40,323 nt of DNA from a virus (taxonomy: Duplodnaviria > Heunggongvirae > Uroviricota > Caudoviricetes): the IMG/VR virus record IMGVR_UViG_650377933_000001, positions 1 to 40,323 of that record. One strand, written 5' to 3'. Positions 26,686 to 26,964 of this stretch are shown here, piece after piece. The position numbers and the translations under genes are program-made. Below the pieces are notes generated by a model. It was not told where the DNA came from and ran no database searches. It saw only the letters and a list, made by a program, of their open reading frames with translations. Each line of letters starts with the position of its first letter. The first letter of the stretch is position 1.

Positions 26686-26964
26686 ATGACACACATGATC
26701 TTTCGTCATGGCGACATGAAGAAGTGGAAAGGAGTTGGCTACGACTTTGAAATCGTGAAAGCCGAAGAGCTTCAGGAATATCTGGATGCTGGCTGGTTTG
26801 CACATCCCGATGACCTTCTGAAGGATGTTGCAGAGCCAGAGCCAGAGCCAGAGCCAGAGCCAGAGCCAGAGCCAGAGCCAGAGCCAGAGCCAGAAGAAAA
26901 ACAGCGTAAAAAGCCTGGTCGAAAACCTAAGGCGGCAGCAGATGAACCTGACAACGAAGGGTGA
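26686..26964 (+). CDS. Hypothetical protein with (Glu-Pro)n repeat and basic C-terminus (92 aa)
   Basis: GGAGA RBS then ATG at 26686 ([44 protein letters not shown]...), then (EP)10 encoded by the GAGCCA repeat, then [21 protein letters not shown]; 3' end overlaps the gp4 start. Confidence 0.5.
26833..26892. repeat. Perfect hexanucleotide tandem repeat (GAGCCA)x10
   Basis: Read directly from the sequence; in-frame, so copy-number change alters only the EP-linker length. Confidence 0.9.

Follow-up and report, generated by a model that had tools for sequence, protein, structure and literature searches.

A GAGCCA repeat of variable length in the Escherichia coli-lineage counterpart of P22 orf69, between the coat and gp4 genes of P22-like prophages

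The coat–gp4 junction and its small open reading frame

We examined a 40,323-nucleotide stretch of DNA from a virus of the class Caudoviricetes (IMG/VR record IMGVR_UViG_650377933_000001, positions 1 to 40,323; ‘the window’ below refers to this entire stretch), focusing on a small open reading frame (ORF) that is located between the genes for a P22 gp5-type coat protein and for gp4 (the head-tail adaptor or tail accessory factor), and that contains ten perfect tandem copies of the hexanucleotide GAGCCA. The features of the region are collected in Table 1. An initial annotation of the sequence had described a 92-residue ORF that is equipped with its own ribosome binding site, follows the coat terminator and overlaps the start of gp4. 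All of these elements are present: a GGAG motif precedes the ORF, a terminator-like stem-loop follows the coat gene, and the stop codon of the small ORF is positioned 20 nucleotides beyond the gp4 ATG, giving a 23-nucleotide overlap in which its last seven codons fall within the beginning of gp4. The match of gp4 to PF11650 extends over residues 2–160 (profile positions 3–151). An equivalent stem-loop or terminator is annotated in the records of P22, Sf6 and HK620. A scan of positions 26000–27600 against Rfam returned zero matches, and predicted RNA folding around the gp4 start was unremarkable (z −0.07).

Table 1. Features of the coat–gp4 junction in the window, followed by other regions of the window and of relatives referred to in the text (the latter with locus labels)
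Feature	Coordinates	Strand	Evidence or remark
Coat protein gene, P22 gp5 type	25346..26641	+	PF11651 P22_CoatProtein, E 2.8e-166, full length
Coat terminator-like stem-loop (9-bp stem, 4-nt loop, T run)	26647..26673 (stem-loop 26647-26668)	+	Terminator scan
Shine-Dalgarno GGAG of small ORF	26676..26679	+	6 nt 5' of ATG; sequence reading
Small ORF, 92 aa (ATG at 26686, stop 26962-26964)	26686..26964	+	phrog_1175, E 3.3e-33
N-terminal folded module, residues 1-49	26686..26832	+	AlphaFold, family alignment A1, hhalign
Perfect (GAGCCA)x10 = (EP)10, residues 50-69	26833..26892	+	Exact array match
Basic AT-hook-like core, residues 72-83	26899..26934	+	Kept in short and long forms; net charge +7
Probable gp4 Shine-Dalgarno AAGG, in small-ORF codons K82-A83	26929..26932	+	9 nt before gp4 ATG; sequence reading
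gp4 gene (head-tail adaptor / tail accessory factor)	26942..27442	+	PF11650, E 1.1e-58
Regions behind P22-like prophage identification	1-1074, 35761-36684, 37348-39795		
Long-form genes in the same slot (E. coli prophages)	L020:1586-2197, L019:1586-2179		
HNH/NUMOD4 genes of relatives	L013:658-1173, 4848-5339; L020:2816-3400; L015:4837-5382; L002, L003:1-385		
Regions concerned in the conflicting public annotations	26825-27442; L002, L003, L005; L001:2031-2531; L012:2587-2832		

The perfect 60-bp repeat and the alternating Glu-Pro (EP) tract that it encodes had been correctly read in the initial annotation, as had the basic tail that follows the tract. Exact matching of the array and Tandem Repeats Finder agree on the repeat; the latter reports positions 26831–26894 (period 6, 10.7 copies, 100% matches, score 128), a span that is two nucleotides longer on each side because the flanking bases carry on the pattern. 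Matches to a four-unit probe, allowing up to two mismatches, were confined to the array (0 expected from 100 shuffles). Minus-strand ORFs that cross the repeat and would encode (WL)n and (GS)n were dismissed as antisense to the coat and gp4 genes; they stay open solely because the repeat contains no stop codons. The repeat has been noticed at least once before, since the GenBank record of phage APC_JM3.2 carries a ‘repeat_region’ feature.

The small ORF corresponds to orf69 of phage P22

According to the initial annotation, P22 lacks a gene between gp5 and gp4 and the small ORF was inserted there. Neither statement stands. The P22 record (BK000583) lists orf69, a ‘putative’ gene of 69 codons, directly after the coat stem-loop and overlapping the start of gene 4, and the window protein is homologous to its product (BLASTP E 5e-11, 33% identity). 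The P22 protein also matches phrog_1175 (E 4.5e-31), a family of ‘unknown function’ that the window protein matches with a similar score (Table 1). The two proteins align over their full length, with an IY/IF-x-x-G start, W-G-V, V-I/I-V, EL-x-EY, DGW/AGW-x-x-HP and LL segments, and a GRKPKA tail. Membership in the orf69 family is thus indicated by sequence similarity, by a slot that follows the coat terminator and runs into gene 4, and by the G-W-x-x-H-P motif together with the GRKPKA-type tail. The order of terminator, small ORF and overlapping gp4 is common to P22 and Proteus phage V3, and conserved versions of the small protein occur in Salmonella, Tatumella, Symbiopectobacterium and Proteus. 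Homology to orf69 and occupancy of the same slot therefore identify an ancestral, syntenic gene of P22-type phages, rather than an insertion. We consider very probable both this identity, with the small ORF as the E. coli-lineage orthologue of orf69, and the hypervariability described below.

By sequence search the family is narrow. When the N-terminal 49 residues were run with HMMER exhaustively against 1.84 billion representative proteins, only 24 matches were returned at E≤0.001 (7 of them at E≤1e-10), some of which are small proteins of the orf69 family and the rest long repeat-containing proteins. A scan against NCBIfam gave low-complexity matches only (TonB, SslE and DarA), all far under their cut-offs, and a Pfam scan gave only Trypan_PARP (24.1 bits, cut-off 100) and SPESP1 (17 bits, cut-off 27), both matching over the EP tract. 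Literature searches for orf69, hkbT, WDGH, GAGCCA or typing by tandem-repeat number at several loci (MLVA), and P22 virion proteomics returned nothing on the gene or its variability. The family itself is already catalogued; the striking in-frame variable-number tandem repeat (VNTR) in its E. coli branch is the addition.

Repeat copy number varies widely among relatives

Slippage at a repeat of this kind had been predicted to vary the length of the linker in frame, and a comparison of copy number among relatives had been proposed as the check. That comparison was performed, and the prediction is strongly borne out: the counts, far from being identical, range from about 1 to about 33 units. Among six phage isolates, Bas106 contains 2 units, HZ41 contains 5, Louie contains 5 (including two GAGTCA), Dewey contains 5 plus GAGCAA, and IME10 and APC_JM3.2 each contain 8. 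The locus is present in 216 of 5,426 complete E. coli genomes, where the range of about 1–33 units was estimated from match lengths (392–589 nucleotides, mostly in steps of 6). Eight E. coli prophages that were read directly contain perfect arrays of 10, 17, 18, 19, 20, 24, 29 and 33 units, and in all eight the ORF is open and in frame with its tail intact. IMG/VR contigs contributed 54 complete arrays of 2–14 units (mode 6–7), all composed of whole 6-nucleotide units and 43 of them perfect. The Salmonella/P22 branch lacks the repeat, and the length of its product is fixed at 69 residues.

The most informative comparison is between nearly identical prophages. CUVET19-970 (L014, 20 units) and IR53017 (L016, 18 units) show 0 differences in 5,100 nucleotides of flanking sequence, and the flanks of Ecol_881 (L018, 10 units) differ from both at 3 sites. 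Array length thus turns over much more quickly than point substitutions build up. With a unit of 6 nucleotides, no slippage event shifts the frame, and neither the tail nor the overlapping gp4 start is affected. The locus has one hallmark of phase variation, namely an intragenic tandem repeat that is polymorphic among close relatives; however, a unit that is a multiple of 3 does not switch translation on and off, and a phase-variable on/off switch is ruled out for that reason. Two IMG/VR contigs (L066 and L076) end within the GAGCCA array, suggesting that the repeat breaks short-read assemblies.

The Glu-Pro frame is the coding frame

Across 15 related loci, the 49-codon N-terminal segment contains 5, 0 and 9 variable sites at codon positions 1, 2 and 3, respectively; seven codons show synonymous variation only and five show conservative changes. 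This pattern, together with the lack of conservation of an upstream extension of gp4, identifies the EP frame as the coding frame, and by the same substitution pattern the N-terminal module is under purifying selection at the protein level.

Public annotations of the region conflict. The GenBank records of IME10, Louie and Dewey omit the small ORF and begin gp4 at an upstream ATG (26825 in the window), so that the array is read as (Ser-Gln)n. The APC_JM3.2 record labels gp4 as ‘recombinase RmuC’. In RefSeq, the Prokaryotic Genome Annotation Pipeline (PGAP) names the small ORF as a hypothetical protein, but wrongly marks intact alleles (with 29 units, and with the WDGH domain described below) as pseudogenes.

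A reading in which gp4 has a longer N-terminus that includes the repeat, and the small ORF is spurious, is compatible with a gp4 frame that is open back to 26825, and three records are annotated in this way. We regard this as scarcely credible. In-frame stops precede the gp4 ATG by one codon in P22 and Proteus V3 and by twelve in Sf6 and HK620, the PF11650 profile begins at the canonical Met, and a GAAGG motif directly abuts ATG 26825 and therefore leaves zero spacer. The EP frame, in contrast, has both a coding signature and homologues at the protein level. The (Ser-Gln)n annotation was therefore rejected.

Architecture of the small protein

An AlphaFold2 model was generated from a 21-sequence alignment of the family. 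Its confidence, expressed as the predicted local distance difference test (pLDDT), is about 90 for residues 1–40 and 54–58 for the EP tract and tail. The N-terminal module (confident over residues 1–45) is modelled as a beta-hairpin (residues 2–14 and 17–25) followed by a helix (26–34) and a short helix (41–48). In family alignment A1, residues G36, W37, H40 and P41 are invariant, and conservation reaches 90% or more at K80, K82 and A83. The low confidence beyond residue 45 is consistent with disorder of the EP tract and tail, and the model as a whole fits the architecture of domain, linker and basic tail that the initial annotation had proposed. If the EP tract is extended as a polyproline II helix, as we infer, the rise per residue of that conformation gives spans of about 1, 6 and 20 nm at 2, 10 and 33 units (about 0.6–20 nm over 1–33 units). 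Over the same three copy numbers the net charge of the whole protein changes from −5 to −13 and then to −36.

Structure comparison found no solved structure resembling the N-terminal module. The model of a long form of the protein (below) shows the fold too, as do several small, uncharacterised proteins of phages in BFVD (E 2e-4 to 0.1). Nothing meaningful was returned when the PDB was searched by sequence with the family profile, the profile of the endonuclease module described next, or the long form. The family profile A1 matched no PDB chain at E≤1, including those of solved virions, although a disordered or low-copy protein could escape such a search. Nothing supports association of the small protein with the virion, and the papers searched contained no report of its detection in purified particles by mass spectrometry.

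When the family was aligned with hhalign to 32 repeat modules of homing endonucleases, the match had a probability of 95.3% (E 2.3e-8) over 19 columns, corresponding to residues 21–39. The likeness points towards the DNA-binding regions of those enzymes, as judged from the profile comparison. Like the N-terminal module, the ‘ELQxYLDxGW’ module of the endonucleases contains a strand-helix-GW segment; the endonucleases carry 4–6 tandem copies in their C-terminal regions, with a nuclease domain, whereas the window protein has a single copy with a longer hairpin and, in Pfam and NCBIfam scans, no nuclease domain.

The tandem-module proteins are P0129, P0132, P0134, P0136-P0140 and P0142-P0144, of GIY-YIG/HNH type. 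They carry 4–6 copies of a module of about 32 residues with the pattern h-W-I-N-x-d-G-x-x-K-x-I-x-x-x-E-L-Q-x-Y-L-D-x-G-W-x-x-G. GIY-YIG and NUMOD3 domains are present in one of them, and a second has an HNH match that is weak and below threshold. The module is outside Pfam and without a PDB relative, and has the look of a homing-endonuclease DNA-binding repeat that has yet to be curated.

The tail, KKPGRKPKA, resembles an AT-hook. A canonical Arg-Gly-Arg-Pro core is found in two relatives, P0133 (KRRGRPPK) and P0204 (KKRGRPTK). From the likeness to the endonuclease module and this tail we regard DNA or RNA binding by the small protein as plausible, though it is a tentative suggestion on which we would not rely.

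A long form carries a WDGH domain

A longer gene occupies the slot in about 20% of the E. coli prophages that have this coat–gp4 junction (44 of 218 records, counted as those covering <80% of the query); the window carries the short form. The long form encodes 190–210 residues and consists of a homologous N-terminal module, a variable linker, a WDGH domain (PF25311, E 1.5e-39), an (EP)n tract and an identical tail. Relative to the window protein, it adds the WDGH domain of about 100 residues and extra linker between the N-terminal module and the EP tract. It matches phrog_3769. Arrays of 2 and 5 units were read directly in long forms, and match lengths of 759–783 advance in steps of 6.

Long forms are also found in Pantoea, Cronobacter, Erwinia, Xenorhabdus, Hafnia, Serratia and Klebsiella, always with the N-terminal module, an acidic Pro-rich linker and a KKPGRKPKA-type tail. 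One Serratia protein joins WDGH to a crAss001_48 domain and to a domain resembling Tad2 (Thoeris anti-defence 2). The structure model of the long form was poor (pLDDT 54) and unfit for a structure search.

Comparison with known systems

The closest counterparts of the window protein are P22 orf69, gene 6 of epsilon34 and their equivalents in Salmonella P22-like phages, which occupy the same slot and have the same GW..HP N-terminal module and GRKPKA tail. They differ in the linker: P22 orf69 has a fixed length of 69 residues, with a short, non-repetitive acidic linker (PVEADDVKP) where the E. coli branch has the GAGCCA microsatellite. Gene 6 of Sf6 and hkbT of HK620 (phrog_3251) resemble the window gene in their slot, their overlap with the gp4 homologue, the small size of the product (61 residues) and a KRGRK motif near the C-terminus, but they have no repeat, and homology to the orf69 family could not be demonstrated with hhalign (probability 2%).

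Outside phages, the spacer of TonB consists of Glu-Pro and then Lys-Pro repeats and is taken to be extended. The window protein likewise has an alternating, acidic X-Pro tract followed by a basic Pro-rich tract. The TonB tract, however, is not a perfect DNA microsatellite, and the window protein is cytoplasmic and phage-encoded. Homology to TonB was rejected, as the match (19.4 bits against a cut-off of 315) is confined to the EP/KP tract.

A parallel for the repeat is the poly-psi VNTR of NeuO in the P22-like E. coli prophage CUS-3, which is also a slippage-prone coding repeat in a prophage, highly polymorphic among isolates and lengthening a repetitive peptide (PMC3046976). The length of that repeat scales enzyme activity (PMC3046976). 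It differs from the window repeat in having a 7-nucleotide unit that produces on/off switching and in its location in the accessory region, where it marks the 5' end of a gene for an enzyme, whereas the GAGCCA unit of 6 nucleotides is always in frame and internal to the gene for a small late-operon protein.

Other features of the window and its relatives

The window is a complete P22-like prophage (Table 1): a lambda-type integrase lies at its left end, the antirepressor (P22_AR_N/C) is of P22 type and the tailspike has a P22 head-binding domain. A gene resembling that for replication protein O (11057–12004, PF04492) contains two clusters, of about 3.7 copies each, of a 12-bp repeat resembling CCGCACATGAAG, and a TACCCCCC doublet (11484–11529, 11565–11608 and 11644–11659); these resemble origin iterons such as those in lambda O. 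A minus-strand ORF without a Pfam match (6025–6993, 322 residues) contains, at 6392–6486, an imperfect repeat of period 6/48 (GCTTCT-like).

Several relatives carry HNH/NUMOD4 homing-endonuclease genes at the scaffold–coat and gp10–gp26 junctions, one of them splitting gp10 (Table 1). The window has no HNH/NUMOD4 gene at any of these three sites. Because the HNH endonucleases of the relatives lack the GW module, a direct link between them and the small ORF was dropped.

Discussion

We propose, with a probability of roughly 0.55, that the small protein is a non-essential accessory factor of the late operon with a length-tolerant spacer, contacting nucleic acid and/or an assembly partner. The N-terminal module and the basic tail would be its two functional ends, because they are kept in every form. 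The EP tract would act as a tether joining them, probably neutral in its length, with about 1–33 units tolerated. The underlying GAGCCA microsatellite gains and loses units by replication slippage, always in frame. The protein would presumably be dispensable, and would act late in infection on nucleic acid and/or an assembly partner.

Several points weigh against this proposal. There is no Pfam or NCBIfam family for the small protein, and every database name for it is ‘hypothetical protein’. The likeness to the endonuclease module spans just 19 columns, and that module has itself no PDB relative in sequence searches. The tail has GRKP where a canonical AT-hook has GRP. Its conservation may in part be imposed at the nucleotide level by the embedded Shine-Dalgarno sequence and start codon of gp4, since the former lies within K82-A83 and the last seven codons overlap gp4. 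The strong acidity at high copy number sits poorly with simple DNA binding, and the neutrality of length variation is assumed. Assembly errors may affect some copy numbers, yet differences of 12–60 nucleotides in arrays of at most 200 nucleotides are unlikely to be artefacts.

An alternative to neutrality is that copy number is selected, with an adaptive contingency locus maintaining a standing mix of lengths in the phage population. Long perfect arrays (the uninterrupted 17–33 units in E. coli prophages, and the perfect majority in IMG/VR) indicate recent, ongoing turnover, and the array is retained whether or not the WDGH domain is present. NeuO offers a precedent for length-dependent activity (PMC3046976), and the change in net charge over the observed range could autoinhibit the basic tail. 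The Salmonella/P22 branch, however, works without any repeat, the 6-nucleotide unit is unable to switch expression on or off, and the distribution of lengths is broad and unimodal at low numbers (mode 2–7), as mutation and drift predict; we consider selection on copy number unlikely. It is quite improbable, in our estimate, that the gene serves chiefly as a leader whose translation delivers ribosomes to the gp4 start while the peptide matters little. The 23-nucleotide overlap and the gp4 Shine-Dalgarno sequence inside the ORF would suit such coupling, and the same overlap geometry is found in P22, Proteus V3, Sf6 and HK620, even though the Sf6/HK620 protein has no detectable homology. For a leader, on the other hand, 70–200 codons or an optional WDGH domain would be superfluous, RNA structure at the gp4 start is ordinary, with nothing there to be unmasked, and the N-terminal module has a confident fold, residues that are invariant across genera and the signature of protein-level purifying selection. 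That same selection, acting on a gene that is conserved, intact and syntenic across genera, makes it very improbable that the N-terminal module is a DNA-binding repeat left at the coat–gp4 junction by a decayed homing endonuclease. Such a remnant would account for the motif common to the GIY-YIG/HNH endonuclease repeats, and relatives do have HNH genes inserted at several late-operon junctions, but those local HNH proteins lack the module and no trace of a nuclease domain was found.

A further possibility is that the N-terminal module and/or the tail bring the protein, and with it any WDGH cargo, into the capsid or onto the packaged DNA, for delivery into the next host. By analogy this would resemble IPI of T4 or DarA/DarB of P1, and could serve anti-defence. 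The gene lies in the structural late operon, between the coat and head-completion genes, and the family is modular, its two ends flanking an optional WDGH domain in about a fifth of E. coli relatives and in other Enterobacterales. The Tad2-like Thoeris anti-defence domain is a fusion partner of WDGH elsewhere, and anti-restriction proteins that are injected form a recognised class (PMC8402733). Set against these points, no PDB chain from a solved virion matches the family, and the ejection proteins named in the P22 paper are gp7, gp16 and gp20 only. The WDGH model is poor, and the connection to Tad2 is guilt by association from one architecture. We therefore judge delivery by the virion to be improbable to much the same degree as the leader. 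An elaborated version is a little less probable again: the slot would encode a modular carrier whose targeting module and DNA-anchoring tail load the protein, and in the long form a WDGH effector, into the capsid, while a hypermutable, polyanionic (EP)n tract sets its reach or autoinhibition and supplies a standing range of variants.

The main value of these findings is corrective, in that what had appeared to be a new insertion is orthologous to orf69 of P22, which had been catalogued but left unstudied. The current understanding of P22 assembly is not overturned. The conflict among public annotations is resolved: three records fuse the repeat to gp4 and miss the real ORF, and PGAP assigns pseudogene calls to intact alleles. 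For these prophages the repeat is a potential strain-typing marker, and also an assembly hazard, as some contigs end inside it. The in-frame polymorphism of about 1–33 units constitutes a natural allelic series with which the linker and the protein could be probed. The most promising lead towards function is that the slot encodes a modular protein with an optional WDGH domain; if such proteins are indeed carried by the virion, they would deliver a WDGH effector, related to the partners of Tad2 anti-defence domains, into the next host.

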